Source: a virus (lineage: Duplodnaviria > Caudoviricetes). Taken from it: DNA of 27,595 bases. The DNA lies in IMG/VR virus record IMGVR_UViG_3300017707_001118, positions 1 through 27,595 of that record. One strand, given 5' to 3'. The notes beneath the pieces were generated by a model. The model was not told where the DNA came from, searched no databases, and saw only the letters and a program-made list of their open reading frames with translations. A program made the position numbers and the translations under genes. Shown piece after piece: positions 1,693-20,520 of the stretch. Position 1 is the stretch's first letter, and each line of letters opens with the position of its first letter.

Positions 1693-2074
1693 TGTGTTTT
1701 ATGATCCATTTAACAAGATTGTTTTCCGCCAGTTCGTTTGCTCGTTGCTGCTCGTTTATCGATAGCAGCCAAAATCCGCCTTTGAAGGACGATGGTAACC
1801 CTAATTCAATACAAGCAGAGGATTGCCCAATCCATGCAACGCGGTTGATATTTTGGTTGGTCAGAAAGTTTTCGCATGAAATAGGCCACTCAGCAAAAAC
1901 ACGGTCTATCCCATGTTGAAACCTATCGAGGTTTGCTAGGAAGTCTCGATACTTAAGCTTGAAAACGTGCTCGTCCGTTCCAACGCAATTAGCTGCAGAG
2001 TACATGCCAGCGGCGGTGCACTCCCAGTCGTCCCATTTATGGAAAACCCTCTGGACGCTAGGCATCCTCTTCAT
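1616..2074 (-). CDS. Hypothetical protein within the IbrA/IbrB-like cassette
   Basis: RVFHKWDDWEC..AGMY...WPISCENFLTN..INRVAWIGQ. Start at MKRMPS (2074) with GAGGTGG upstream. Overlaps both neighbours. Confidence 0.7.
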   Translation of the reverse strand: MKRMPSVQRVFHKWDDWECTAAGMYSAANCVGTDEHVFKLKYRDFLANLDRFQHGIDRVFAEWPISCENFLTNQNINRVAWIGQSSACIELGLPSSFKGGFWLLSINEQQRANELAENNLVKWIIKHNANKEAGKRLRKDVGFQMLFRWDSR

Positions 2075-2690
2075 TTGCCACCTCTTCCTCAAACAGCTCT
2101 TGCTCATCAATCTCGTCAGCCTCCCAGCTCTGAGAGAAGGACCGGTTTGCAAACAGAGCGGCCACCCCTGTTATCTGTTTAAGTCTTAACAGCTCGTCTA
2201 GGCTCATCCCAATGTGCTGGCAGATCCATCGATCGCCCTTGCCCATTTCGACCAGCTCAGCAACAATCGTGCTCATCAGCTCGATGTTGTGCGTCCCTCT
2301 CGCTCTGTTGTGGCGAATGGTGGACGCCATTCGATCACCTAGTTCCTTGTCGATAACGACAACCGGGAGCATGCCACCCTCTCTCTCAAAAATCCTGCGA
2401 CTGTTCTTGAGAGTCAAGTATCGGTGGAATCCGTCAACAACGATGTACATGTCGTTGTCGCTGTCGTAGTACGTCACGACTGGCTGTGTATATCCGTCCT
2501 CCCAAATCGACGTCTCAAGCAATGCCATCTCAGGCGGTGCGACCGCATTGGGGTTGTAGTCGTTGGCCCGGACCTTATCGATAGGAACGGCCCTCACGTT
2601 ATAAACTGGCGATGTAAACTTATTCATTCCATCCTCTCGGTATCTTTCGTCTGTAAGTATTGCATGCAGAATATGTGGCGGCATCATCAA
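2058..2690 (-). CDS. IbrB/YbdM-like ParB/Sulfiredoxin-domain protein
   Basis: SPVYNV..VP..KV.ANDYNPN.VAPPEM.LL..SI.EDGYTQPVV...VVDGFHRY...RMASTIRHNRARG.H is the IbrB/YbdM pattern. Alternative start at 2627 (MNKFTS). Confidence 0.88.
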   Translation of the reverse strand: MMMPPHILHAILTDERYREDGMNKFTSPVYNVRAVPIDKVRANDYNPNAVAPPEMALLETSIWEDGYTQPVVTYYDSDNDMYIVVDGFHRYLTLKNSRRIFEREGGMLPVVVIDKELGDRMASTIRHNRARGTHNIELMSTIVAELVEMGKGDRWICQHIGMSLDELLRLKQITGVAALFANRSFSQSWEADEIDEQELFEEEVANEEDA

Positions 2691-3061
2691 TATGATCCGC
2701 TTTCGTCATGCACTTCCTTGCCAGTGCACGGCGGATTGAACACGGAGATCAAAGTCACCTCTGACGTAGCTCGGAAGAAATGATCGTCATGGGCATCGAG
2801 CACATAGCAGCATCCTGGATACACTTCCGAAACTTCACCGGTCAACGCATTTTTGAGCATCCCAAATCCAGATATGCAATAGCATGCCTCAAGATGTCGC
2901 TTGTAGTGCCAGTGCTGCCAATCACCGGCTGGAATTACGGTTCTATGCAAACCGAACCCCATCCCCTCGCTTTCAAGCAGGTATCGATAACTAATAAATC
3001 CATTGTTTGGACATTGAACGCGACGTTCGTCGTCAACGTCGCATGGTTGTATGACGTACAT
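2687..3061 (-). CDS. ectC: Ectoine synthase-like cupin (solitary EctC)
   Basis: S.RYLL..EGMGF.LH.T.I..G...H.HY..HLEACYCI.G.G...G..Y.LD.HD.H...A......VFNPP.TG.EVHDE.GSY follows the EctC signature throughout. Metal-ligand equivalents E, Y and H are present. Start 3061 (GGAGGT upstream, TAATG overlap). Confidence 0.88.
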   Translation of the reverse strand: MYVIQPCDVDDERRVQCPNNGFISYRYLLESEGMGFGLHRTVIPAGDWQHWHYKRHLEACYCISGFGMLKNALTGEVSEVYPGCCYVLDAHDDHFFRATSEVTLISVFNPPCTGKEVHDESGSY

Positions 3062-4128
3062 TAAACGTACCTCCATTCAATACGGCCTTTTCTTAGTTGA
3101 TGGTTGTATACGTCCTCGATAAAATGAGGGGCTAGCTTTGCAGCTCTGCTCCCGGTTGTGCCAGCATGTCTCCCGGCTAGTTGCTGGTATTTTTCTTCAT
3201 GCATTCTTGCAAGAACGAGACACATCCGAGAATCATCTATTATTTCGCCGTACCTTGAATACAAGATCGTAAGCATCTGCACAAAATGGCTTGATCCAAA
3301 CATTTGTTGCCACCTTGCGTCATCACCGTCGCCAAATGATTGACTTATGACAAACAGCACTCTATCCAAAACTCCACGTTGATAAGCGTCACGAATTGTA
3401 TTCGCAGCACCAAATTGACGCTTGTTTTTTCCGATGTCAAATCCATATTTGTCTAATAACTGCTGGATGCTCACAGTAGCCTCTTCGCGTTGAGCAAGCA
3501 TTGCTTTGTACATGGAAATACAATTGACTCCGGTACGCTTTGAGTTTAAGTCGTGAAAAACTTCTGCTTCATGCTCCGTGCCACGTGAAAGAAAAAAGAC
3601 GCATGCGAGGGACTCGAGTCCCGCACCTTTTGCACCAAGGAATCGGTGGAATCCATCGACAACCCATTTTGAACCATCGGATCTGACTGCGACCGTTATG
3701 ACTCCGGCAAGCAGCGGATTGAAGTCTTGCTGTATTGATTTAACCAGCTTTCGGTTGACGTAGTTAGTTCTCTGGTAACACGCATCTATTTGTAATTCAC
3801 TTATCAAAACTTCAGAGTTCTGCTGGACTTGAAATAAATTTTCGGTTGACCCATCAGTTTCGAAGGCAAGTTTGCACTGCGTGCTTCCCGACAGCACATG
3901 TTTCTTGACTCTAAAATTCAGGTACGGAGCATCTCCAATTAACGCTCTGCTTTTGCGCCTCTCTACTCCAAGTAACAATCTGAACTCCTGCACGCTTCTA
4001 CCGTGCGTTCCTACTATCGCCTGTAAAGCAAGAACTTCAGAGTCGGACAACGAGTCTATTCCCTTGTTCAACTTGCCTAGATACTCGCGTATAGCTTCGG
4101 CTTCGCCTTTGTTAAAATACCTTTTCAT
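3061..4128 (-). CDS. ParB-like N-terminal domain protein (DUF6551/DGQHR-like) with ~100-aa N-terminal extension
   Basis: LQID..YQR......V..I...FNP...G.I.V..R.DG...VVDGFHR...A, then E.EA..F..LN..R. GC about 42% in a hand-counted 180-nt sample (3361-3540). Confidence 0.75.
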   Translation of the reverse strand: MKRYFNKGEAEAIREYLGKLNKGIDSLSDSEVLALQAIVGTHGRSVQEFRLLLGVERRKSRALIGDAPYLNFRVKKHVLSGSTQCKLAFETDGSTENLFQVQQNSEVLISELQIDACYQRTNYVNRKLVKSIQQDFNPLLAGVITVAVRSDGSKWVVDGFHRFLGAKGAGLESLACVFFLSRGTEHEAEVFHDLNSKRTGVNCISMYKAMLAQREEATVSIQQLLDKYGFDIGKNKRQFGAANTIRDAYQRGVLDRVLFVISQSFGDGDDARWQQMFGSSHFVQMLTILYSRYGEIIDDSRMCLVLARMHEEKYQQLAGRHAGTTGSRAAKLAPHFIEDVYNHQLRKGRIEWRYV

Positions 4129-4129
4129 C

Positions 4130-5473
4130 TTACTTAACCTTCCTGTACTTCGCTGAAATCATTCTCTGCCTATCCATCTGCTCCCGCGTAGGAGCCAGAC
4201 CCATGTATTTACAAACATGGTCATTCTTCAAAATCGTTATCGCGAACCGCTTCCAAGAAGCGACTTGACTGTTGTGACAACTGAGCATGTCCAAATGGTC
4301 CGGGAACTTCCATATGCGAACGCGATCTAGTGTCTGGTTGCCGTGTCGCGTTTTTCCGTTCAACTTAAACTCAATACCGTGAGCCGATAACTCGTCAATT
4401 ATGTTTTGAGGTACACCGCGGCCCACTCTCCCCCAGACCTTTATCGACTGAGCGAACCGCTTACGAAAATTTTCAGATACCTCTTGAGGCAGCGTGTCCA
4501 ACAGGAACTTGACGAACGATTTCCAAGTGTGTCCTGGAGGAAGCTTGAAACTCTTGTAGTTGAGCTGCTTCCCGTAGGTAGCTATAAAATTTGCACCGTG
4601 AACGCGAGAACATAATCTCGCCCACGTGCCTGGATCTATTACCCTGTAAAGATTCAAGCTGCTTTTGCTTTCCGACATAAACGGCGACGCAACACGCATC
4701 TTGTGCACTGGCACACCAGCCTTGTAAAACACGTCGTAAAGCTGGTTGTACTCCCATTCGAACTTAGCGTTCGCGGTCCAAATATCCTCCGTCCTCCAAT
4801 CATAAATCGGATAACAGTTATAGACGTGTTCTGAATTACGCTTGGTCCATTTCTGACCGTCCAGCGATTCCTTCCTGTCGTTCAAAATAGCCCTAAATCT
4901 GTTTAGGCTTTCAGCAGTCCTGATGCCAATCATCGAGCAACATCGCTCTCCTTGAGCGTACCAAGCACCAAACTCATCCCAAAACTCGTCGTACATCATG
5001 TTTTCTCGAAAGAATGGCATGCTGTGATTCTGCAAATTGACTATGTAGTCTTGCTTTGGCATTGGTCGAATCCATCGCTCCTTGTCGGCTTCTCCCCAGC
5101 ACTGCCAGTCCACCGCGTATTGCGACACGGTGCACGGCAGCGTAATTGGCAGGCAACACCAATACACGTCGAGTATGTCGAGGTTCTTGCTCAATATCGA
5201 ATGCATGAAGCTTAGCGAGTGCTCGTAGTTTGCTTCATTATCCAGGATCATCACGCCGACTTTCTTCGTGATTCCATGCTTCCGCATGTAATCAATAACC
5301 AGGTTGAGCATCACACCCGAATCTTTCCCTCCGCTGAAGGAAACGTACATCCTTGGAAACTTTTCAAACATGAACGCAATGCGTTCTTGAGTCGCTTCAA
5401 ATACGTTTTGCTTTTTGTAGGTGCGACGTAAACGAATACGCTCTTCCTGTTTCACCACCACTTGTTGATTCAC
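4130..5473 (-). CDS. IbrA/YbdN-like PAPS-reductase-family (PP-loop) protein with DUF3440-like C-terminus
   Basis: PP-loop VSFSGGKDSG, IGIRTAESLNRF, YPIYDW..EDIW, YN.LYD.FYKAGV, C-terminal SWKR...ILKND. Likely GTG start at 5473 with GAGGAGG upstream. Confidence 0.9.
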   Translation of the reverse strand: MNQQVVVKQEERIRLRRTYKKQNVFEATQERIAFMFEKFPRMYVSFSGGKDSGVMLNLVIDYMRKHGITKKVGVMILDNEANYEHSLSFMHSILSKNLDILDVYWCCLPITLPCTVSQYAVDWQCWGEADKERWIRPMPKQDYIVNLQNHSMPFFRENMMYDEFWDEFGAWYAQGERCCSMIGIRTAESLNRFRAILNDRKESLDGQKWTKRNSEHVYNCYPIYDWRTEDIWTANAKFEWEYNQLYDVFYKAGVPVHKMRVASPFMSESKSSLNLYRVIDPGTWARLCSRVHGANFIATYGKQLNYKSFKLPPGHTWKSFVKFLLDTLPQEVSENFRKRFAQSIKVWGRVGRGVPQNIIDELSAHGIEFKLNGKTRHGNQTLDRVRIWKFPDHLDMLSCHNSQVASWKRFAITILKNDHVCKYMGLAPTREQMDRQRMISAKYRKVK

Positions 5474-5474
5474 T

Positions 5475-5834
5475 TCATTTCCTCCTCGCAAACATGTTTC
5501 TTTCCTTTTTAATCGTCCGCAACCTTTGCTTTCGCTCAATCTCCACCTCTTCCGCCAGATCGCAACCGAGGCACCGCATCGTGAGGATCTTCGCTCCGCA
5601 TCTGCCGCATCGATGTTGGTTCTTCTCGACGAATCCACGTCGAATCTGACGTGCCAGAGTCATGTAATAATCTCGGCACTTGTTCCGTCCGAGGTGCATG
5701 TGGTGATCTCGATTGTTCGACCACCATCGAGAAAACATCTCGCCAGCGGTTTCGATGGGATCTCTTGGCGAATAAAGCATCGCGTCCATCAGTTCCTCGA
5801 TCGCCTTGTCCGTAAAGTTCAACCTACTAGCCAT
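5475..5834 (-). CDS. Hypothetical protein with CxxC-x8-CxxC zinc finger
   Basis: RCGRCGAKILTMRCLGC. Start re-assigned to MASRLN (5834) because a small ORF occupies 5819-5920. Confidence 0.65.
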   Translation of the reverse strand: MASRLNFTDKAIEELMDAMLYSPRDPIETAGEMFSRWWSNNRDHHMHLGRNKCRDYYMTLARQIRRGFVEKNQHRCGRCGAKILTMRCLGCDLAEEVEIERKQRLRTIKKERNMFARRK

Positions 5835-6031: not shown

Positions 6032-6262
6032 TCACCGGCTCTGTACTACCGGGAACTGTGCGTACACCTCTTCAATCCTCCGCGTCTGCTGCTCGCAGAC
6101 TTCGTCTACCTTTTTCAGCTCTCGCCACAATGCGACGAGTGCCATCTGTTCTCTGGTCAGCGTTTCCAATCGACCCGTCGCCAACGACTCCGCGATCCTG
6201 CGTGCATCATGCGGCGTGATCGGTGCAATGAGTCCGTACCGTCTTGATGTTGGATAGATCAT
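6032..6262 (-). CDS. Hypothetical protein
   Basis: 76-aa ORF with ATGA overlap to the upstream gene. No motif recognised. Confidence 0.6.
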   Translation of the reverse strand: MIYPTSRRYGLIAPITPHDARRIAESLATGRLETLTREQMALVALWRELKKVDEVCEQQTRRIEEVYAQFPVVQSR

Positions 6263-6564
6263 CGATACACCTTGTACGTTTGAGCCAGCTTGCCTGTGTG
6301 GTTGCAGATCCGTTGATCGTGTTGATAGATCACCAACTTCGATTGCAGTCCGCTCGCACGCTTGCGAATGGACTCATGATTGAGTGCACCGTTGCGTACT
6401 GCTCTCGCCGCGACCTCGTTGGCCGTCGCCTCGCCCAGCTCCAGCAGGCACGCGATGAAAGTCTGCTCCAGCATTCCGAGCTTCGGTGCGATCTCCTCAG
6501 CAGCGATCTGCGAGGTGATCGGATCGCTCGCACGAGCCTCTGCCCAGTCAAGCAATGGCATCAT
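6259..6564 (-). CDS. Putative winged-helix DNA-binding protein
   Basis: AR.SDP.TS..AA N-terminus, G.ATANEVA....IRKRASGL helix-turn-helix-like core and beta-wing C-terminus. GAGGTG upstream. Confidence 0.65.
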   Translation of the reverse strand: MMPLLDWAEARASDPITSQIAAEEIAPKLGMLEQTFIACLLELGEATANEVAARAVRNGALNHESIRKRASGLQSKLVIYQHDQRICNHTGKLAQTYKVYR

Positions 6565-6566
6565 TG

Positions 6567-7244
6567 CTACACCTCGACCGTTTCTTCCAAAGCCACTGGA
6601 GCAGGTTGCAGCGGTGCAGCGTTCTTGATAATTCCGCCAACGCGACGCGGTGCAGCGGTGTTGATCACCTCGCCTTCAACCGTGTCCGAAACTTCCTCGG
6701 ACGTGTGCAATCCCATCGCCAGCTCCGGTGCGTAGGCTCGGATGAACCATCCGGCAGCACGGTAGCGAAGCATCTGTTCTGGCATCGTCTGCCACTTGGA
6801 ACCCTGCTTGCCAAACCATCCTTCCTTTTTTGCCAATCCAACGGTGATCTCGCTTCCTTCGAGCATCTCGCCGGTGCACAACTCGACGGCACAAGCAACG
6901 CATCCATGCGTGTCCGTGCCAGGCTGTCCTGTCCATCGGTAGCGAATCGCGGAGAACTTGCCGCAGGAGTTGAACGTCGCGATCAGGAACTGACTCGACC
7001 AGCTCGGCCTTCCGTGCACAATGTACAAATTCTGCATCACCATCAGCGGATCGGCACCCATCCGATTCGCCATGTTCAAAGCAACGACGCAGTTGGCGAT
7101 GTTGTTCTGGAACTCCTTCGGAACCAGCGTTGACGACGACAGCAACTTCGCTGCTCGTTGCGTCAGCATGAAACTCTTTTCGGAACCGAAGCCGATAGAA
7201 ACGTCATCCGCACTCACCAACTCTTTTTCGATAACCACACTCAT
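6567..7244 (-). CDS. RecT/Redbeta-like single-strand annealing protein
   Basis: S.LVPKEFQ...ANCVVALNMA.RMG.DPLMVMQNLYIVHGRPSW...SKWQTMPEQMLRYRAA..F.R.YAPE. Adjacent to a RecE-like exonuclease. Start 7244 (GGAGGG). Confidence 0.8.
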   Translation of the reverse strand: MSVVIEKELVSADDVSIGFGSEKSFMLTQRAAKLLSSSTLVPKEFQNNIANCVVALNMANRMGADPLMVMQNLYIVHGRPSWSSQFLIATFNSCGKFSAIRYRWTGQPGTDTHGCVACAVELCTGEMLEGSEITVGLAKKEGWFGKQGSKWQTMPEQMLRYRAAGWFIRAYAPELAMGLHTSEEVSDTVEGEVINTAAPRRVGGIIKNAAPLQPAPVALEETVEV

Positions 7245-7248
7245 CAGA

Positions 7249-8073
7249 CTAACCCTCCAAGGCAAAAACATGCTTGTCGTACCAACGCGGCAGCGACAGA
7301 TTTACAACACCACTTGACCAATTCGCGATCCACTCATCCGTCGCCAGACGCGACTTGTATTCCGTGAGCAATTGCTCGATCTCATCAAATCCAATCGCAA
7401 TGGATTGATCATCGAGTTCGTACACCGCCGACTCATACGGTGCCGACGTATTGACGACGAAGAAGAAAAACCGGAAGTCGTCGCCGTACTTTTCGCGGCA
7501 TGCCAGCTTGTAGAACGCGGCCTGCCTCGCATAACCAAACGCACCGACGCTTTTGCAAAAGGCACCAGGCGAAGCGTCTTTCGTAGTCTTGATGTCAATA
7601 ATGATCTGCGACTCTGGCAGCACCATATCTGGCTTGCACTTGCACGGCACCTCGAGCCAGTCGAACATGATCGGCACCTCGATCACCGCATCTCTCGGCA
7701 GTTCGTTGATGTAGTAGCGTCCGATGTCATGATTGCTCAGCGACTCCACGCACTCGCACGCCTGCTGGTACAGATCGCCATCGACAAGCTGCTTGCCATT
7801 GGCCTCAGCCTGGAACTCAGCCCACGCAATCTTTCCTTCCGTCGTGCGACGATCGCACTTTGGAACCACCGCGTAACGTGAACTAAACGTGTCCGGCTCC
7901 AACGCCAGCGAGTGCACCAACTCACCCAGTGCCATTGATGACGACTGTTCGTTAACAATCGTTTGCGTTACGAAAGTCTGCAAAAACTCTTGTGGACTCC
8001 GCTTCAGCACCGAAAGCATCGAGTTGCTGATTCTTGCCGTGTTGGCGTGATACCTATCGTTTTCGATCCCCAT
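7249..8073 (-). CDS. RecE/exonuclease VIII-like PD-(D/E)XK nuclease (DUF3799-like)
   Basis: YHA...ISNS.L, G..VH...LEP, D.RT..GK, E......CKCKPD......IIDIKTT, Y..QAAFY. Start 8073 (GGGAGGG). Confidence 0.88.
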   Translation of the reverse strand: MGIENDRYHANTARISNSMLSVLKRSPQEFLQTFVTQTIVNEQSSSMALGELVHSLALEPDTFSSRYAVVPKCDRRTTEGKIAWAEFQAEANGKQLVDGDLYQQACECVESLSNHDIGRYYINELPRDAVIEVPIMFDWLEVPCKCKPDMVLPESQIIIDIKTTKDASPGAFCKSVGAFGYARQAAFYKLACREKYGDDFRFFFFVVNTSAPYESAVYELDDQSIAIGFDEIEQLLTEYKSRLATDEWIANWSSGVVNLSLPRWYDKHVFALEG

Positions 8074-8488
8074 TGTTCCCTCCCATCCCAAACAAAAACC
8101 GTACAAACTCACAAAGCACTTGCCAACGATTCTCACGATCGCGGCGATTCATTGCAGCAGCGATCGCGTAGATACGCTCCGGATGAAGTCGAAACGCTTG
8201 CGTCTCAGTCACCAGCCAGTAGACCTGGTCGCACGTTTCGTGATTCCAAATCCAATACAGGCCGCACCGCATCCACGCTGGCCTGACGTTGAGCAGATTC
8301 AGCTTCAGGAACTCCGCCTCGATCCAATAAAAGTCGATGTGATCAAGATTGATCGAGCCTTTGCCACCGCAGTAGCAACAATCGTCGGCCAACTGCCCGC
8401 GACGCTCGCACCATTCACAATCGATCACCTCGATCACGTCATCGATAAAGCGTTCGATGCAGCGATCAATTGCAGCTTCAGTTGCCAT
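8054..8488 (-). CDS. Hypothetical protein with DnaJ-type CxxCxxxG/CxxCxGxG zinc finger
   Basis: CEWCERRG...CCYCGGKG. Start MATEAA (8488) with AAAGGA upstream. Confidence 0.6.
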   Translation of the reverse strand: MATEAAIDRCIERFIDDVIEVIDCEWCERRGQLADDCCYCGGKGSINLDHIDFYWIEAEFLKLNLLNVRPAWMRCGLYWIWNHETCDQVYWLVTETQAFRLHPERIYAIAAAMNRRDRENRWQVLCEFVRFLFGMGGNNGDRKR

Positions 8489-8663
8489 GATCGGAGTCCT
8501 TTCCGTTTTTAATGGCTGCGTAGACTTCCTCTCTATGGATAGGAACATCTTTGGGAGCGGTGATGCCAAGCCTTAGCTTGCCGCTAGAAGAAGTGACAAC
8601 TTGAATGATGATGTCGTCGCCAATGCGAATCGATTCACCAACGTCCCGTGCAAGTACCAGCAT
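8478..8663 (-). CDS. csrA: Carbon storage regulator CsrA/RsmA homolog
   Basis: MLVLAR.VGESI.IGDDI.I.VV......RLGI.APKDVPIHREEVY matches CsrA across its length, including the RNA-binding Arg in HREE. AAAGGA upstream. Confidence 0.95.
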   Translation of the reverse strand: MLVLARDVGESIRIGDDIIIQVVTSSSGKLRLGITAPKDVPIHREEVYAAIKNGKDSDHGN

Positions 8664-9103: not shown

Positions 9104-9367
9104 TCAATGATCGCGGGTGATTCTGTACCCTAAACGGAACAGCACCCTGGCTAGATCCTCGCTGGTTTCGGTGATCGCTTGTTCGTCGAGATCCCAGTGG
9201 CAGGCGTGGAGCATCTCGTGGATGAGCACCTCTAGCTCTCGCTCGCCGGTTAGCGAGGGTCGGACGGTGATCGTGCGGGTGTTGGCGTCGCAGAGGCCGT
9301 CTAGCTTGCTGTCTAGCTTGCCTCGGACAATCGACCAGTATCGGCCTCGAAGTCTGCAACGCATCAT
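9104..9367 (-). CDS. Small HExxH zinc metallopeptidase-like protein (ImmA/IrrE/SprT-like)
   Basis: G.CD....TI.V...L......EVLIHEMLHA.....DE. Start 9367 overlaps the upstream stop (ATGA). Confidence 0.75.
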   Translation of the reverse strand: MMRCRLRGRYWSIVRGKLDSKLDGLCDANTRTITVRPSLTGERELEVLIHEMLHACHWDLDEQAITETSEDLARVLFRLGYRITRDH

Positions 9368-10380
9368 GCACCTCGAATTTCGCCATGCTTGGTGATCCGC
9401 ATGTTTCGCACGCTGAAGCTGCCGTCGGTCGCGACATCCACCCAGCAGAATCCGTGGTTCCAACGATTTACGCGAGCATATTCAGGGGTGAGATCGCAGA
9501 GACAACCAGTGCTCCAGACAAATGTTTCCGAATGAAACATATCGGTGTCCGCGTGGCCGCTGGTCTGGTGGGAGTGTCCAACGAGGACGGTGTGATGTGT
9601 TCGGAGAAATGCACCTCTGGCAGGATTAACAGGGCTGAAGATCGAGCGGCCCAGCTCGTGGCCGTGAAGGACTGGTAGCTTTCCGAGCATGATCGGACGC
9701 TGATCGCCGATCACCTCGATGCCGAATTGCTTGGCCTTGACCAGTTCATCGATGCGAACGTTCGCGAGGTCGTAAATCTCGGGTGCTCGATTCCAGATAA
9801 AATGGTCCCAGCGTTCTTCGTGATTGCCAAGTTTGAATACGATGCGTGCCTTCGGGAACTCATGGCGAATCCATTCGAGGCCTCCGATCACTAGCTTTAG
9901 TTCCTCCGAGAATCGTCGATGGTGCGGATCTCGCTGATGCCTGCTGACTTGGTAGAAGTCGGCGAAGTCGCCATTGATGAGCAAGCAGTCTGGTGATTGC
10001 TTTTTGAGTTCCTTCACGGCAGCGGAGAACGCTGTTTCGTCGTGGTATGGGATATGAACGTCTGAGATGATGCCGACTCGTTTGGCGTCGATTTCGAATG
10101 GTTCCCACGCGGTTGACAGGCTTGGCGGCATTTTGGGAACTTGACCGGCAACGCCCTTTGGCCGTGGTTGGGTAGCGAATTTCTTTTTCGCTGTGCCGTG
10201 TGCACCTCGGATGGATCGGATGGTACTCCGAGCGGTCTCCACGCTGCGGAAGCTGTTGGGTCGTTCGGCCTTTGCTCGTTTTGCTAGGCCGAGATTGGAT
10301 GCGTCTGGAAACTTGCGGCAGAGTTCCTCCAGGTAGAGGCGAGCTGAGGTTTGAGGGGGTCCAGGTCGTTTTTTCGTCAT
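9364..10380 (-). CDS. Calcineurin-like metallophosphoesterase with basic N-terminal domain
   Basis: All five motifs present: SDVH, GDFAD, GNHE, HGH, GHSH. Confidence 0.9.
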   Translation of the reverse strand: MTKKRPGPPQTSARLYLEELCRKFPDASNLGLAKRAKAERPNSFRSVETARSTIRSIRGAHGTAKKKFATQPRPKGVAGQVPKMPPSLSTAWEPFEIDAKRVGIISDVHIPYHDETAFSAAVKELKKQSPDCLLINGDFADFYQVSRHQRDPHHRRFSEELKLVIGGLEWIRHEFPKARIVFKLGNHEERWDHFIWNRAPEIYDLANVRIDELVKAKQFGIEVIGDQRPIMLGKLPVLHGHELGRSIFSPVNPARGAFLRTHHTVLVGHSHQTSGHADTDMFHSETFVWSTGCLCDLTPEYARVNRWNHGFCWVDVATDGSFSVRNMRITKHGEIRGA

Positions 10381-10395
10381 CTCAATCCATCCGTG

Positions 10396-11712
10396 TTAGG
10401 TGTCGATTGACAAATACCGTCTCCAGCGATCCGCCATAGCGTCCGCTGTGTACTCGCTAAGATCGATGCTGGATGCTGTGGCGGTTTCTATAGCGTGTGC
10501 TATAGCCGACGCGTCCGCATCAACATCAAGGATCGATGGACCGAAGTCTCCGTGACGCTCAGCAAGATCGTGCATGATTCCTAGATTGGTCGAGACTACT
10601 GGCAGGCCAAAGTGCATCGCTTCGACGACCGATAGCCCGAATCCCTCGCTGGATGGAACCGTCGCGAAGACATCGATGGCATTGAGGAAGTCGCCGATCT
10701 GCTGGATGGGTTCCAGCATGCGGACTCGATGACTGATTCCAAGATCGTCGGCAATCTGCCGCACTCGCTCCGCATGCTTGGTGAGCCAACCGCAAAGGAC
10801 GAGATACGCTCCGTCCATCTTCGCCACAGCCTGAACCAGCAGCTCGCAGCGTTTCTCGGCAGCAATTCGACCTGTGTAGCCGACGACAAAAGCGTCCTGG
10901 GGAATCTCGCAACGTAGACGCATCTCCTCGCGGGTGATCGTGGGAACAAGTCGCTCGGTTTCGATTCCGTTTTCGATGGTTTCGCATGGTCGGCCTGTCC
11001 ATCGAGTGACGTGCTCCGAGACAACCTTGGAAACACCCACTAGACGCCGGCAGACGCCGTGAGAACTCATGACCCAGTCGCGTGTCCAGTCGCAGTATCC
11101 GTGAGCCAGCAGGATCAAATCGGAGTCTAGGATCGGTGCTGCTTTTGGAACGCAGCTCATGACAATCGGGACGCCATGCTTTGCTGCATCGAGTAATCGG
11201 ACGCGAGGGGACATCCCAAGCAGCGTCTCGGCAACAGTTTCGTCGGCAATGTTGCCGTGTACAACGGTCCCGAATGATCGCAAACGGCGAGCCATCGAAA
11301 TCGACCAGCATTCAAGCCCACCAAAATGGATCGGTTGCCAGAATGCGATCTCGGATCGCCAGAGACGAAGTGCCTCGTCGACGGTGATCTGCGGGTATCG
11401 CTTTCGCTCATTGTCAAGCTTTGCGTTGACTTCGTTATGGACATCGATGGTCCATCTGAAGAAGTCGTCGGGAGTCTCGAAGCGTGGCGGCGTTCGCTCC
11501 TTGATCTGACGATAGCCTTCCTCGCACTTGCAATAACGAGGAATTGTGCGTTCCCATTTCTCAAGCCATTCGGGATCGTTTCCGCGGTAGCGATGGAGGT
11601 GGAACCAAGGATTCTGAGCGAACCAGGCGAACGCTCGATTCTGCTGTTGCACGATCGGTTTTGGTTCCGAGGATCGTGTCTCTGGGCTCTCAAAGTGTAC
11701 GCCAACTCGCAT
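10396..11712 (-). CDS. Fusion: Erv1/ALR-like sulfhydryl oxidase domain (aa ~36-118) plus GT-B/GT4 glycosyltransferase
   Basis: N-terminal: W36-FHL-H40, IPRY-C61-K-C63-EEGY, FFRWTIDV-HNEVN-AKL, EALRLW. C-terminal: GGLE, ENGI, YTGRIAAEK, EGFGLSVVEAM (E-x7-E), GLPVVST. Confidence 0.8.
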   Translation of the reverse strand: MRVGVHFESPETRSSEPKPIVQQQNRAFAWFAQNPWFHLHRYRGNDPEWLEKWERTIPRYCKCEEGYRQIKERTPPRFETPDDFFRWTIDVHNEVNAKLDNERKRYPQITVDEALRLWRSEIAFWQPIHFGGLECWSISMARRLRSFGTVVHGNIADETVAETLLGMSPRVRLLDAAKHGVPIVMSCVPKAAPILDSDLILLAHGYCDWTRDWVMSSHGVCRRLVGVSKVVSEHVTRWTGRPCETIENGIETERLVPTITREEMRLRCEIPQDAFVVGYTGRIAAEKRCELLVQAVAKMDGAYLVLCGWLTKHAERVRQIADDLGISHRVRMLEPIQQIGDFLNAIDVFATVPSSEGFGLSVVEAMHFGLPVVSTNLGIMHDLAERHGDFGPSILDVDADASAIAHAIETATASSIDLSEYTADAMADRWRRYLSIDT

Positions 11713-11721
11713 GGCAGCCTG

Positions 11722-13131
11722 TTAGGTGTTGAGGGTGACGACGACCGTTGGGAATGGTATGCAAACCTCGTCGGTCGGCTCAATCTGCTTGGTGAAATTG
11801 ACAGAGAACGTGTAGCTGTCGACAGTCGCAACCTTCATTTGATAGACAGGTACGATGGGATCGGCACCGGAGAAGTAGCAGTCGATGCAGTCCCAGTAGT
11901 TGCACGCGTTCTGCTCTGCTAATGGAGGTCCGGGGTAGATCGGGTTGTCGCACGACTCGCAATCCTGAGTCCATCGGCCTGGTGCGTAGTTCTCCCAAAA
12001 GAGATTGTGGCAAGCCGTCGTTTTGATGAGAAACGGATTGTTGACGACGTTGAACGTTTCCATGATTCCGTCCTCGGTAAATCGAGACTCGGAGTGAGTG
12101 CGATCGGTTTCGCGTGGTTCACATGAGCATGGGTATCCGCCGCTGAACTTGGCACAGACATCGCACTCAATGCCTATGTTGAAGCAGAACTGGCAATTGT
12201 AGAGATAACCGATGCTTCGAATCGTTCCGCCAGTCACCGGATCGAGGCTCGCTCCGATTGGATAGAAACACAGTGAGTCGACGCCCTCGATGCATGTCTC
12301 GAAGTTGCATTCGTTGACGTCTGCATCGGTAAAGGTGATCGTTGCTGGAATGTCCTCGGGTGCATCGTAAACGCGATAACGCAACAGCCAGTACGTTACC
12401 TCTGCTCCAAACTCGACATCGTCTGGACAATTGAATGGCGAGTCGTGGTAAGGCTTTGTCGATGTGCATTCTTCTCCTGGAATCGGAACTGGCGGGAATC
12501 CACTGTTGAAATCGTAGCCCTGGATATTTTCCTCACAGCATGACGATTTGCCGCTCATCGATGCGGTTCTTGTGGTCGACTGCCAAGAGCCAGCACCGTG
12601 AGCAGCTCGGACCTCGACAGCACATTCGACAACGTACTTGCACTCGATGGTCCCACCATACTCGCAAGTCATGTTGCCCTTGTAGATCGATACCTTCGTT
12701 TCGCCATAGGCCCAGCGAACCGCAATCCATCGCTGAGTCTTTAGCTCAACGGCACGTTCCACCGTTCCGCAGTTGTAGACGTCGTCGCAAAAGCTGGCTG
12801 CACTTGCGTCTGGCTCGTCGTAAAAGAATGTGCAAAACACGTCGTTTTGCTGGTAGGTTCCAGGCGGATCCAGCACGTACTTTTTTGACTTGATCATCTT
12901 CGACGAAACTTGGATCGTTTCGTTGATGGTCCGATCGACGACTAGAAGCGTGTCGCACGTGTAATAGATGGTGTCGTCGGTCGCTGTTGCTGTGTGGCAG
13001 CATCCATTCGAAACAAACGAAACGGTGTCCGTTTCCGATTCCCTGAGGATAGTGACGCTGGTAGCGATCTCGGCGAGTTCGGCGGCATCCATGCAGCACG
13101 GTGAGCAGTTGCACGAACCGAAGCATCCCAT
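11722..13131 (-). CDS. Cysteine-rich putative tail tip/receptor-binding protein (469 aa, 34 Cys)
   Basis: Likely true start MGCFGSCNCSPCC at 13131 (TAATG overlap). Last gene of the tail block. Acidic and Thr-rich, about 7% Cys by hand count. Confidence 0.6.
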   Translation of the reverse strand: MGCFGSCNCSPCCMDAAELAEIATSVTILRESETDTVSFVSNGCCHTATATDDTIYYTCDTLLVVDRTINETIQVSSKMIKSKKYVLDPPGTYQQNDVFCTFFYDEPDASAASFCDDVYNCGTVERAVELKTQRWIAVRWAYGETKVSIYKGNMTCEYGGTIECKYVVECAVEVRAAHGAGSWQSTTRTASMSGKSSCCEENIQGYDFNSGFPPVPIPGEECTSTKPYHDSPFNCPDDVEFGAEVTYWLLRYRVYDAPEDIPATITFTDADVNECNFETCIEGVDSLCFYPIGASLDPVTGGTIRSIGYLYNCQFCFNIGIECDVCAKFSGGYPCSCEPRETDRTHSESRFTEDGIMETFNVVNNPFLIKTTACHNLFWENYAPGRWTQDCESCDNPIYPGPPLAEQNACNYWDCIDCYFSGADPIVPVYQMKVATVDSYTFSVNFTKQIEPTDEVCIPFPTVVVTLNT

Positions 13132-13817
13132 TAGCAGATCTCCACAGCAACCCACTTGGCATCGACTGGGAATATTAACACGATCGCATTTGCGGTGATC
13201 GGTGTCGATGTCGGTGCCCATGCGGTGTAGGTAATGGTTCCTGGACTCCAGTTGCCGGAGCTGGGGAGCCTGGCCGTAACTGTTCCGCTGCTGTTGCCGG
13301 CAATCCCAAGCGATCCTGCGGTTGCCAGTAGTGGCGTTTCGCATGCGATCACCTTGAGGATGTCGGTTCCGATGTCATCGTAGGCAATCGCGGTGAAGGA
13401 GCTTCCCTTGGTAAGCTCAAAGGAGTCTACCGCAGGTCCAAGCCTGGTTCCGCATGCGTAGGATGTTCCGTCCGTGAGTGCTCGGAAGATCGGACCAGAT
13501 TGAGCAACGCCTAGATCACCGGCCTCAACCTCGTAAGGACCATTCAAGAGAAACGGTGCCATTACGGAGTTGGTGTAATCAAAGGGTCTGGCAATCTGCA
13601 AGTAGTTCTGGCTTCCGATTTCCTGGACGCCGTTGACCTGGATGCATCCGTAGGGAGGAACTGTATGGCTTGAAAGATTGATGAAGTAGATCGGTGGAGC
13701 GATCGCCGGTCGCATGTCGGTACTAGCGACATCGATCCCACGCTCAAAAGCGAGCGTGGCCTGCCATATTCGGCGAGCACGTTCGGGAGTAAACGCTCCG
13801 ATCTCAACGTCTGGCAT
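13131..13817 (-). CDS. Putative tail tip/virion protein
   Basis: Position downstream of the tape measure. Beta/Gly/Thr-rich, ends in ...WVAVEIC. Confidence 0.55.
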   Translation of the reverse strand: MPDVEIGAFTPERARRIWQATLAFERGIDVASTDMRPAIAPPIYFINLSSHTVPPYGCIQVNGVQEIGSQNYLQIARPFDYTNSVMAPFLLNGPYEVEAGDLGVAQSGPIFRALTDGTSYACGTRLGPAVDSFELTKGSSFTAIAYDDIGTDILKVIACETPLLATAGSLGIAGNSSGTVTARLPSSGNWSPGTITYTAWAPTSTPITANAIVLIFPVDAKWVAVEIC

Positions 13818-13820
13818 CGA

Positions 13821-14447
13821 TTAGCCTCGTGTGTCGCAAAGAAGAGAAACTTTGTAGACCGCGGGAGTAACCGCGGTTCCAGTCGCTGCGTCGTTGCAAG
13901 CGATTGACATCCGGCATTCCAGCAGTTTTCCAGCAAGACTAGAGCCTGTGACGGTGAAGTCGTAATTGGATGCGGTCAGCGAGTTCATGCTGGTCGCCGA
14001 TGTGGTAACAAGATCGGAACCAGGCGATCCGGACGAGCCAGCATATGCCTCGAAGTCGATGGTGCATGTGGTGTCGGCAACGGTTGTCTCCATCTTTGCA
14101 TTGGCTCGGATTTGGATCGTTTGCCCGTTTTCAAAGTTGGGAGGAACGGGGATCGAGAAGTAGATCCGTCGCGTGGTTGCTCCAACGGCCTTGAGATCGC
14201 CAGCGGTGATCCGGACAGGATTGGTGCCCCAGGTGCCAGTGACCAAGCCGAGATCGTCGCTGGCCGCTGCGGAGACGGGATTGGATGCGACAGCGTCCCA
14301 GACTCGAAACGCATGCACCGGAACAACGTACTCGGCGAGGACTCGCTGAGCCATCTTCGTTGGGTCGATGTTCGCGTTCGCTGCGATGTCGACGTCGTTG
14401 ATCGAGGAATCGGGGAGGAGTATGGTGACGTTTGCAATGGTTGCCAT
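13821..14447 (-). CDS. Putative virion protein (beta-sandwich-like)
   Basis: Thr/Ser/Ala-rich, located in the tail block. No family recognised. Confidence 0.55.
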   Translation of the reverse strand: MATIANVTILLPDSSINDVDIAANANIDPTKMAQRVLAEYVVPVHAFRVWDAVASNPVSAAASDDLGLVTGTWGTNPVRITAGDLKAVGATTRRIYFSIPVPPNFENGQTIQIRANAKMETTVADTTCTIDFEAYAGSSGSPGSDLVTTSATSMNSLTASNYDFTVTGSSLAGKLLECRMSIACNDAATGTAVTPAVYKVSLLCDTRG

Positions 14448-14448
14448 G

Positions 14449-15354
14449 TTAAAGTAGTCCTAATGCGTTGAAAGGGAGTGAATCGTAGAGCTTGAACTCA
14501 AGCCAGTTTGCGATCTGTTCTTCGCCCTCAGCGGGTACGGGAAGTCGATAACCGTCGGCAGCGAGAAGCACTTTGCGAGTCATCGGTTCCTTGTTGCCGT
14601 CGACAGCTCGAACAATGCGAGTTCCGGCACCTGGCCCGGACAGATCAATCTTTTCGTAGAAGCCTTCATGACGGACGCGAGCGTACCAAGCTTTCTCTGC
14701 GGTTGTTCGGTACGGGTAACGGAATCGAATCTGTGCAGTGATTTCCCAGTAGCCGCCAATTTCGCCAAAGACATTGGACGCAGAGAACTTCATGAGTTTT
14801 GCGGTTCCGGGAGGCCAGCCGAGAAACGTGTCTGAATTAACCGCTCGGCGGTAGCGTGCCTGGACATACGGCGAGAAACTAATCATGTTCCGTTTGATGC
14901 TGACCGTCTGATCTGGAATGAGTGCCTTGACTCCCTCGATCGGTTCACGGTTGACGGTCTGGATTGGCTTGCCGTCGAAGTCCTCGTCGATCTCTTCCTC
15001 GCTTTCGATGTCGTCCCAGTCGATGCGAGGCGGAGCCATAATTGGGTTGTTGGGCTCTTCTGGATCGGTGCCAGGTGCAATCTCGCCGTTGTAGTCGATC
15101 GTCATCATCCATAGGACGGGAGACACCCGTTCTAGAGATGCACCATCGGCGTAGACAAATGGAAAATCTTCGCTGAAGGACGAGCCGGCAGCGGGGATTC
15201 CGGTCGCTTGGTAAATGTCCCATTCGACAGCGTTGGGCGTGCTGGTGATCTGGTAGGCACGCTGAAGCTTGACCGTGAGCTTTCGGAAGTTGTCTTCCAG
15301 TCGCACGTCATGAGCGGGCTTAGACCACATTTCGGTGACTTCAAGGGCTGGCAT
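14449..15354 (-). CDS. Putative distal tail/hub protein
   Basis: Immediately follows the tape measure (TAATG overlap). Call is positional only. Confidence 0.5.
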   Translation of the reverse strand: MPALEVTEMWSKPAHDVRLEDNFRKLTVKLQRAYQITSTPNAVEWDIYQATGIPAAGSSFSEDFPFVYADGASLERVSPVLWMMTIDYNGEIAPGTDPEEPNNPIMAPPRIDWDDIESEEEIDEDFDGKPIQTVNREPIEGVKALIPDQTVSIKRNMISFSPYVQARYRRAVNSDTFLGWPPGTAKLMKFSASNVFGEIGGYWEITAQIRFRYPYRTTAEKAWYARVRHEGFYEKIDLSGPGAGTRIVRAVDGNKEPMTRKVLLAADGYRLPVPAEGEEQIANWLEFKLYDSLPFNALGLL

Positions 15355-16730
15355 TACTTGATCACCTCAAATTTTACTCGGTCAGAATTTGGCGTTTTCA
15401 ATGGTTCCAGTTTCTTGATCGCTTCCTCAACCTTTCCAAGTTGTTGAACGGTCAGCTTGGTATTCTCGACGATCTTCTTTTGATCGTCCTCGCGTGGACC
15501 ACGACTAAGCAATCGAGATTCAAAAGCCGCGTTGCTGGTCTGCTCGATTGCCTTCGCGTCCTTCTTTTCTTTCGATGCGTCCATTGCGGCCTGAGCTGCG
15601 GCGATCGCCTCGGCGGTTCCCTGGTCGAGTCCCTGCTGCTGGAGTCGGAATGCGTGGGCGGCTTGTTCGCCTTGTTCGATGGCGATCTTTTGTTCCTGAA
15701 GTCGTTCCAGTTCGCTCTTGCGTAGGTCGTCAATCTTTTGGATGCGTGCTTTTTCTTCCTCGTCGGCCTTCTTTTTGGCGTCTGCCTTTTCCTTTTCGAG
15801 GTCAACCATCTTTTGCAGGTTGGTGATGATCTTTGCGTCTTGCTCAGACTTGCCATCGGAAAGCAGTTGAGCTTTTTTGGCTTCAAGTATGCCCATTGTC
15901 AGTTCGTTGTATTGATTGCGGAGTGCTTTCATCTGAGAAACTGAATCGGCATCTATTTGCTTTTTCTTTTCAATTGCGGCGGTCTCTTCCTTGAACGCTT
16001 TAATTGCAAGTGCTCGTTTTCCGTATACACTGCTTAATTGATTTTGCTGCTCGTTCAACTGAGCAATACGCTCGCGTTCTAAATCAATTTCATCCTGCTT
16101 GATTTTTATGTTTGCCTTAGCTTCTCCAGTTATGTTGAAGCCTTTTTTCATTTTGTCTAACTGACTAATGTTCCTTCCTAAAGAAACCTCAACTGTCTTC
16201 AGATCGTTAGATACGGCCGTAAAATACTCATGAGCTACTTGCTGCTGTTTATCGGGATCTCGTATTAGTGCGATTTCCTCCATGTCCTGCGAAAACCGGA
16301 AGTTTTGAACTCCAGCAGTAGCTTGTGCTAATTCGCGGATTTGCTCGCGTGCTTGCTCTAGCTTTTTGTTCCACTTGTCGGTCTGGAAAATAATGTTGCC
16401 AAGCGACTGCCCAATGTTTACGGCAAGAGTAGCAACGAGCCCAACAAGTCCCGCCTTGAACGCCAGAGCACCGGCACCTCCAGCCTTTTGCATCTCGGCA
16501 AATTGTCCTACCTTTTCGGTGACTCCCGCCAACTGACCTGCATACGACGCCAGCTCCGTTCCGCCCAATTGACCAGCGAGGACGCCAATAAACTCAGTGG
16601 AGGCTTTCGCCTTGGCTCCGGTGTCCTTCACCGACTTGATATTTTGATCGATTGCCTGAGCAGCAGCAGCGACCTTTGCAGACGCTTTGTCCTCGGCCTC
16701 GATCAGGATCTGTACGGATTCGCTAGCCAC
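15354..16730 (-). CDS. Tape measure protein (short, 458 aa)
   Basis: V.ILIEAEDKAS N-terminus, Ala/Gly hydrophobic segment, long coiled-coil. Follows the chaperone pair. Confidence 0.8.
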   Translation of the reverse strand: MASESVQILIEAEDKASAKVAAAAQAIDQNIKSVKDTGAKAKASTEFIGVLAGQLGGTELASYAGQLAGVTEKVGQFAEMQKAGGAGALAFKAGLVGLVATLAVNIGQSLGNIIFQTDKWNKKLEQAREQIRELAQATAGVQNFRFSQDMEEIALIRDPDKQQQVAHEYFTAVSNDLKTVEVSLGRNISQLDKMKKGFNITGEAKANIKIKQDEIDLERERIAQLNEQQNQLSSVYGKRALAIKAFKEETAAIEKKKQIDADSVSQMKALRNQYNELTMGILEAKKAQLLSDGKSEQDAKIITNLQKMVDLEKEKADAKKKADEEEKARIQKIDDLRKSELERLQEQKIAIEQGEQAAHAFRLQQQGLDQGTAEAIAAAQAAMDASKEKKDAKAIEQTSNAAFESRLLSRGPREDDQKKIVENTKLTVQQLGKVEEAIKKLEPLKTPNSDRVKFEVIK

Positions 16731-17067
16731 GGTGAGCCTCCGCCTTGATCATGAGTTCGTCAAGTTCCAAGAAACGTTGTGCGTCGACGAACCAGACGGC
16801 CTGGTCCAGTGCTCCGCCAGAGACAGGTGGCAATCCCTTTTGGTAGAGATCGCACAGTCCAATGACGTCGACAATCGGACGGCAAAAGCGATTTGGGCAC
16901 CCCTGGATGCGTACCGACCCCTGAGCACAATGGGAGCACCCGGACCCGTTGCAATGCGGGCACTCGATCTCGATTGGTTCTGTGTCGGTTCCCATGTCAA
17001 CGCACTCCTTGTCGCTGCAATGCCGGCAGAGTTTTCCCTGACGGATCAACGCAGCGACTCGCATCAT
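16723..17067 (-). CDS. gpT-like tail chaperone extension (likely a G-T frameshift product) with zinc-finger motifs
   Basis: In the -1 frame relative to the upstream chaperone. CRHC..., CPHCNGSGCSHCAQG, C-terminal LPPVSGGALDQ. Confidence 0.6.
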   Translation of the reverse strand: MMRVAALIRQGKLCRHCSDKECVDMGTDTEPIEIECPHCNGSGCSHCAQGSVRIQGCPNRFCRPIVDVIGLCDLYQKGLPPVSGGALDQAVWFVDAQRFLELDELMIKAEAHRG

Positions 17068-19863: not shown

Positions 19864-20520
19864 TTACCTCTTGCACTCCACCGACACGTAGTCGATGGTG
19901 ACGCTGTTGACGTTCGTCGATGCAGTCTTGCTCATCTGAACGAACGGTTGCAGCGAACTGGTTGCAGCGGCCATCGTAAAGGTTGTGGTCGATGCGACTC
20001 GCTGGCCGTCGACGTAAAACTTCACGTCAGACTTTCCGCCAGTGAAGTCGATCACACACTCGCGATAGGTGGCAACGAGCGACAGGCCAGTAGCCTTGTC
20101 GTCAAGATCGCTGGTTCCGTCGTCGGACTCACAAACAATCGCATTCGAGCCAACAAGCTTGAACTGGGCGTTGTTTGCAGTCGCGTCGGTGTCGTCGTTG
20201 CGTGCCGACTGAAGTCCGAAGGCCAAGGTCGTTGCAGCGTTGAGCGTTGCAACGGTCTTAACGATGAAGACTGCTCGCTGAATGTTGTCGATGTCAAAGC
20301 AAAGCTTGTCACCGAAATCCAAGCAAACGTTTTGAACTTCGTTGGCACTGTCGAATGTCAGTGCAATCTCTCCGGTAGCCGATGGGCTGACCGAAGCATA
20401 AGTTGGAGTACCGCTCGACGAGGTGTCGGTGATCTTCCAGTTGCCTTCACCGACCGTCGCGGTGAACGTTCTTCCGCCGAAGAAGTCATCTTCGAATTTC
20501 GCGTGGTTCACGAATCCCAT
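19864..20520 (-). CDS. Putative capsid decoration/minor virion protein
   Basis: Directly after the capsid gene. Thr/Ser-rich beta-sandwich pattern (FEDDF...VKFYVDG...IDYV). Confidence 0.55.
   Translation of the reverse strand: MGFVNHAKFEDDFFGGRTFTATVGEGNWKITDTSSSGTPTYASVSPSATGEIALTFDSANEVQNVCLDFGDKLCFDIDNIQRAVFIVKTVATLNAATTLAFGLQSARNDDTDATANNAQFKLVGSNAIVCESDDGTSDLDDKATGLSLVATYRECVIDFTGGKSDVKFYVDGQRVASTTTFTMAAATSSLQPFVQMSKTASTNVNSVTIDYVSVECKR

Follow-up and report, generated by a model that had tools for sequence, protein, structure and literature searches.

The 27,595-nt window analysed here (IMG/VR record IMGVR_UViG_3300017707_001118), a single 27.6-kb contig of a tailed phage, carries at the end of its tail block three minus-strand genes that appear to form a virion-appendage cassette, in which an Erv-family flavin oxidase probably serves one dedicated, cysteine-rich client. 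In gene order these encode a 228-amino-acid (aa) protein that ends in Cys, here called the adaptor (13131..13817), an acidic 469-aa protein with 34 Cys, the probable client (11722..13131), and a 438-aa protein (10396..11712) that joins an Erv/ALR-type flavin adenine dinucleotide (FAD) sulfhydryl oxidase domain (aa 30–120, 11353..11625) to a glycosyltransferase (GT) of family GT4 (aa 121–438, 10396..11352). The adaptor stop and the client ATG overlap as TAATG, and 9 nt separate the client stop from the next ATG. The original prediction, made from the letters of the DNA, had picked out the two downstream reading frames, both of which are present with the 9-nt spacing that it gave, and had missed the adaptor with its invariant C-terminal Cys. 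The ratio of nonsynonymous to synonymous substitution (dN/dS) among close relatives is 0.02–0.14 for the client and adaptor genes, the Erv part and each half of the GT, a range covering the comparisons where it was computable (three comparisons with relative L019 were saturated), and such purifying selection argues that the cassette is not a product of chance. The third-position GC content of the three genes is like that of the remainder of the phage. It is thus probable that the phage cross-links one of its own virion proteins while still within the bacterium, as large eukaryotic viruses are known to do.

The proposed Erv/ALR hallmarks at the N-terminus of the 438-aa protein are plainly there. 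Pfam Evr1_Alr (PF04777) matches aa 56–105 at 31.7 bits (cut-off 27.6; E 2e-7), and a profile built from 75 family sequences matches the solved structures of ALR, Erv1, Erv2 and 3gwl at E values of 2e-14 to 7e-9. The protein contains W36-x2-L-H40, P58-x2-C61-x-C63, W87, H92-N93-x-V95-N96, L99 and W118, and W36, H40, W87, H92, N93, N96 and W118 align with their counterparts in ALR; we take these conserved W/H/H/N/N/W residues to be the FAD site of the family. A search of the whole library returned 481 representatives with E values of 0.001 or below, the best 150 of which were listed, and the query and listed matches gave an alignment of 149 sequences once two lacking an anchor motif had been dropped. 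Across it W36, H40, W53, P58, C61, C63, H92, N93 and N96 are conserved at 92–99%.

The point that the original prediction passed over is the dithiol itself, C61-K-C63 (11524..11532), which keeps the position expected of the family and departs from its CxxC spacing. A CxxC motif adjoining the FAD is given as the signature of Erv enzymes in a passage of PMC10598087, and the window protein does not have it. The substitution is nevertheless the rule among its relatives, CxC being found in 128 of the 149 sequences and CxxC in 16, with C61 conserved at 97% and C63, the counterpart of the second Cys in ALR, at 99%. Between helices one and two the family is about 12 residues shorter than ALR. The domain therefore belongs to the family by sequence even though one defining motif fails; from the profile matches it would be a four-helix bundle, and it probably functions like an Erv. 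The protein is compact, without a signal peptide and, like the compact viral Ervs, without a shuttle Cys pair, although 45 of 147 relatives carry at least four Cys in an N-terminal extension. A hydrophobic N-terminus is absent here and occurs in only one of the 149 family members, and the family therefore looks cytoplasmic. Two features of relatives may be recorded alongside. In L032 (5173–6156) and L038 (6671–7735, both in oriented coordinates) recombination has apparently occurred inside the Erv domain, such that the N-terminal Erv halves and the clients differ while the C-terminal half and a GT8-like domain are near-identical; and the giant-virus-like contig L009 (7854–9918) holds a tandem pair of Erv-like genes, of which the first has CxxxC.

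The Cys content of the client was rightly singled out: 34 Cys in 469 residues (7.25%) compares with 0–2.3% in the 11 other window genes. Its structure model is confidently all-beta (pLDDT 88.9, pTM 0.76), except for aa 1–9 (pLDDT under 50), where the N-terminal arm MGCFGSCNC is unstructured when the client is modelled alone. Neither the sequence nor the model found a family or fold match; a comparison of the model with class II fusogens and beta-pore-forming proteins gave nothing but insignificant matches (TM-scores of at most 0.12, root-mean-square deviation over 16 Å), and there is no transmembrane stretch. Across relatives the clients contain 11–54 Cys, and Cys columns are gained and lost in pairs at distant positions rather than four at a time, a pattern that favours disulfides over metal sites, as had been anticipated. 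By this pairwise covariation most of the client Cys would form intrachain pairs. Because the client has neither a family nor a fold match, the "tail tip" assignment made earlier reflects where the gene lies, at the close of the tail block, and a receptor-binding role would likewise be suggested by position only.

A check suggested at the outset was whether Erv genes co-occur with Cys-rich tail genes in related phages, and such co-occurrence can now be seen from three directions. Starting from the client, all eight divergent loci with downstream sequence have an Erv gene next (three of the 11 examined are truncated). Starting from the Erv motif, 80 flanked loci of at least 119 were considered, 79 of them with a profile match; at the 60 CxC loci the upstream gene has at least 4% Cys in 56, does not in two and is truncated in two, whereas most CxxC loci are giant-virus-like and lack a Cys-rich upstream gene. 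When Ervs are clustered at 70% identity, the client is present in 13 of 15 CxC clusters. Starting from an independent tail gene, the 301-aa gene at 14449..15354 (77 of 80 loci analysed), a Cys-rich gene and an Erv are both found at all 46 loci with at least 3 kb of downstream sequence. In P0099 a Cys-rich region and an Erv domain occur in one chain, a natural fusion. Genomics thus gives good support to the link between oxidase and client.

The adaptor is modelled as an N-terminal helix, a domain (aa 40–159) resembling capsid decoration proteins and head-fibre bases, and an oligonucleotide/oligosaccharide-binding (OB)-like barrel (aa 160–228) that ends in Cys228, and it is a candidate covalent anchor for the client. 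The decoration-like domain is apparently missing from adaptor versions of 109–128 aa. The sequence of events that we favour is as follows. Late in infection the Erv domain would bind FAD and form a C61–C63 disulfide, pass it in the cytoplasm to the co-translated 34-Cys protein, and be re-oxidised through FAD to O2, as the chemistry of the family suggests. The loose Cys arm at the client N-terminus would then probably bond to Cys228 and so attach this protein to the phage particle, the end of the tail being the likeliest site, while the fused GT4, presumably active, optional and exchangeable, would most likely add sugar to a virion protein. That the Erv domain oxidises its own 34-Cys client is the explanation in which we have good confidence. 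A fuller version can be envisioned, in which a secretory-like cassette operates in the cytoplasm, the CxC Erv folding a 30–50-Cys appendage of new fold that is welded by inter-chain disulfides to a (probably trimeric) adaptor and glycosylated by an exchangeable fused GT, sometimes with a sulfotransferase; taken in all its parts, this is rather unlikely.

Several observations weigh against oxidation of the client by its neighbour, or against the arrangement proposed for the two. The CxC dithiol departs from CxxC and about 12 residues are gone, so on sequence grounds FAD binding and activity of the Erv domain are not guaranteed, and the window protein lacks the G-R before W36 that is present in over half of the family. 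Few independent events underlie the pairwise turnover of Cys, and the client CxxC spacings at 313/316, 323/326, 391/394 and 415/418 could bind metal. The 46 concordant loci come from related phages in six Erv clusters; no client-less relative was among the phages sampled, so that co-loss of Erv and client could not be seen, and the phage-like loci L047, L054, L070 and L071 lack an immediately upstream client that reaches 4% Cys. Of the 28 adaptors with a terminal Cys, 25 belong to one family. Placement of the cassette at the tail tip may also be wrong, because the best fold matches of the adaptor are head proteins and because the cassette of provirus L081 lies outside a tail block: there (6103–8436, minus strand; neighbours assigned by eye) an adaptor-like gene, a Cys-rich gene and an Erv(CxxC)-GT2 gene lie between portal-like and capsid-like genes. 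Finally, passages of PMC13576161 describe disulfides in the virions of other phages for which no oxidase is known.

These reservations lend themselves to other readings of the same genes. The Cys of the client and the terminal Cys of the adaptor might mainly be metal ligands, for Zn or Fe-S, with the Erv-like domain loading metal or guarding thiols; lambda gpL and PAAR tips are examples of metal-binding tips. Turnover of Cys columns in twos at distant positions speaks against this, as do the scarcity of His in the clients (0.9%), the predominance of adjacent CC (130) and CxC (70) over CxxC (45) spacings, and the conserved flavin-site residues of the Erv domain, and we regard it as improbable. 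Slightly less improbable, though still not favoured, is that the disulfides are real but arise through air after lysis or through host Dsb enzymes, the CxC Erv being an accelerator, an isomerase, a proof-reader or a protein packaged in the virion. Engineered CxC sites do show isomerase-like behaviour. Disulfide-linked phage tails are moreover attributed to host enzymes or spontaneous oxidation in passages of PMC13576161, and part of PMC3509050 describes CxC motifs that serve cellular Ervs as their shuttle disulfides. Nevertheless, the near-obligate linkage to clients with 11–54 Cys and the strong purifying selection suggest a needed, client-specific job for the Erv, and an FAD-type fold implies an electron sink. 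The non-canonical motif and shortened fold could also mark a dead relic carried along by linkage, yet the domain has a dN/dS of 0.04–0.06, and C61, C63, H40, H92 and N93 are conserved at 97–99% in the 149 sequences, which makes this explanation very improbable.

Oxidation of the client by the Erv domain says little in itself about the GT4. The fusion described earlier is genuine: Glycos_transf_1 and Glyco_trans_1_4 match at 75.8 bits (cut-off 26.4) and 78.5 bits, and the GT-B domain has G131-G132-x-E134, H204-G205, N248, R282, K287 and E356-x7-E364. The motifs of its C-terminal nucleotide-sugar part (R..K and E-x7-E) are intact, and the GGxE, HG, R, K and second Glu are invariant in nine of nine fusions. 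The N-terminal acceptor domain reaches only 14.7 bits against Glyco_transf_4 here, and exceeds the cut-off in homologues P0031 and P0093; dN/dS is 0.02–0.05 for this half and 0.02–0.10 for the GT domain overall. No specific NCBIfam model reaches its cut-off. Among the 150 listed Erv matches, 22 bear a GT-type extension, comprising seven GT4, eight GT8-like (with weak Pfam support in three), six DxD-like (our own reading, with no GT Pfam match, one of which adds a sulfotransferase) and one GT2, and in L047 a weak Stealth-like domain and a methyltransferase domain are added to the Erv. The GT4 is thus an optional and exchangeable module, and the recurrence of unrelated sugar enzymes on the Erv domain suggests a shared, glycan-related job.

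The idea that the GT glycosylates the very substrate of the oxidase is weakened: most Ervs (128 of the 150 listed) have no GT, unrelated types replace one another, and in L032 and L038 a near-identical GT8-like domain stands behind clients of 291 and 455 aa. It is a possibility of some weight, though one that we doubt, that the GT4 has nothing to do with the client and takes as its acceptor phage DNA, a small molecule or a glycan on the host surface, having been fused since neighbours at the end of an operon fuse easily. Consistent with this, L032 and L038 start to resemble the window in DNA at the stop of the GT, no stand-alone GT was seen by eye among the genes that follow unfused Ervs, and the best solved GT matches have small molecules or cell-envelope sugars as substrates; phage GTs acting on DNA and host serotype are known from passages of PMC12619734. 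Against it stand the absence of a membrane anchor, the precedent cited there for virion glycosylation by phage GTs, and the recurring glycan-building theme of fusions to at least three unrelated GT types and to sulfotransferase, Stealth-like and methyltransferase domains. No base-hydroxymethylating gene (TET/JBP or thymidylate-synthase type) was found in the window or in five phage records 46–83% complete, the TET search having been made without a positive control. On balance a virion protein is the marginally favoured target; this client specifically is a tentative choice, a host surface glycan a less likely one still, and DNA an improbable one.

The host can be approached through the Erv copies themselves. 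The only genome matched by the motif scan is a metagenome-assembled genome (MAG) of Pirellula sp., and two of 301 genomes of that family hold an Erv domain; each of the four copies follows a Cys-rich gene in a phage-like block. L148 and L309 are Erv alone, L227 is Erv(CxxC)-GT4, and L310 is an Erv with a GT8-like extension (our own reading) followed by a sulfotransferase-like gene. Three different Erv cassettes thus sit in one MAG (G001; contigs C482, C358 and C94 for L148, L310 and L227). From their occurrence in such blocks we infer that the window phage probably infects a Pirellula-type planctomycete. Pirellula is named among the few bacteria with the Erv family in PMC10598087, with phages going unmentioned in the relevant passages, and the "bacterial" matches reported there may be prophage genes.

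The remaining genes are those of a tailed phage: terminase, tail tube, a lambda-type portal and a fusion of capsid and protease are encoded on the minus strand, as are all features that follow. Upstream of the adaptor lie a 208-aa tail-block gene missing from some relatives (13821..14447), the 301-aa gene, whose place directly after a tape-measure-like gene suggests a hub or distal-tail position and which has no solved relative, and the Cys-free 458-aa tape-measure-like gene (15354..16730), so named from position and composition in the absence of a family match. A second gene at the tail-assembly-chaperone position (16723–17067), kept in relatives, has 10 Cys in CxxCxGxG repeats, presumably DnaJ-zinc-finger-like, and no Pfam or NCBIfam match. 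A metallophosphoesterase and a small SprT-like gene (9104–10380) come after the Erv in most related phages, where the phosphoesterase is of one or the other of two distinct types. Elsewhere are a phage-encoded CsrA-family regulator (8478–8663; Pfam 79.6 bits) and a 218-aa gene after the capsid gene (19864–20520) with a weak concanavalin-A-like lectin match (E 4e-4), possibly a head decoration. The block at 2058–5638, which encodes a 3′-phosphoadenosine-5′-phosphosulfate (PAPS)-reductase/DUF3440 protein, two ParB-like proteins and an ectoine-synthase-like cupin, and which we take to resemble IbrA/IbrB-type modules and which gives a weak DndC match, is swapped for other genes in the close relative L005.

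Set against known systems, a close likeness is to the compact viral Ervs, namely PDB 3GWL, which we take to be pB119L of African swine fever virus (family profile E 1e-12), mimivirus R596 (3GWN/3TD7), vaccinia E10R and baculovirus Ac92, which are likewise virus-encoded, have a single dithiol and no shuttle pair, and are tied to Cys-rich virion proteins. Those serve viruses of eukaryotes and use CxxC, whereas here a tailed phage of a bacterium has CxC, a single adjacent client in a cassette and a GT fusion; seven giant-virus-like Ervs also branch separately from the phage set (SH-aLRT, an approximate likelihood-ratio branch test, 93). The role of viral Ervs is described in parts of PMC3509050 and PMC11654684, the latter covering the baculovirus and poxvirus oxidases. 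Cellular Erv1, ALR and Erv2 share the W..LH, HNxVN.KL and terminal W residue for residue with the window protein (ALR structure 3mbg, E 2e-14), which differs from them in lacking a shuttle disulfide, a second ALR-type Cys pair and a targeting signal and in being about 12 residues shorter. The adaptor is 7–18% identical to capsid decoration and cement proteins, the phi29 head-fibre base gp8.5 (6QYY) and the OB domains of central spikes (P2 gpV, phi92, phiKZ), and unlike any of these it joins both domains and ends in an invariant Cys. GTs of mycobacteriophages (Che8 and others) glycosylate virion proteins, after Freeman et al. 2023 as cited in passages of PMC12619734 and PMC11256854; those are separate genes acting on capsid and tail-tube subunits, and the single GT4 fused to an oxidase may share with them a virion target.

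The disulfide-cross-linked virions of NBD2 (gp39), Milano and PD491P1 likewise have Cys-stabilised tail parts, with no phage oxidase described for them in passages of PMC13576161, where the structural proteins of Milano are given 2.1% Cys as against 7.25% in the window client. The same passages of this 2026 paper state that virus-encoded disulfide machinery has not been described in bacteriophages, in keeping with the original prediction, and our literature search, which covered open full texts and not subscription papers or supplements, found no paper on a phage Erv. On the searches made, then, what we describe is a real, conserved and unpublished tailed-phage form of the Erv pathway of viruses. 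It brings an Erv active site that is CxC by nature, a fold modelled with confidence that has no match, and a means of learning whether disulfide-rich appendages receive sugars from phage enzymes, and a compact oxidase of the bacterial cytoplasm without a known partner could help the cytoplasmic production of disulfide proteins. Virus-encoded disulfide formation is a process described for eukaryotic DNA viruses, and the cassette is a small, testable phage candidate for it, with enzyme, client and anchor side by side.
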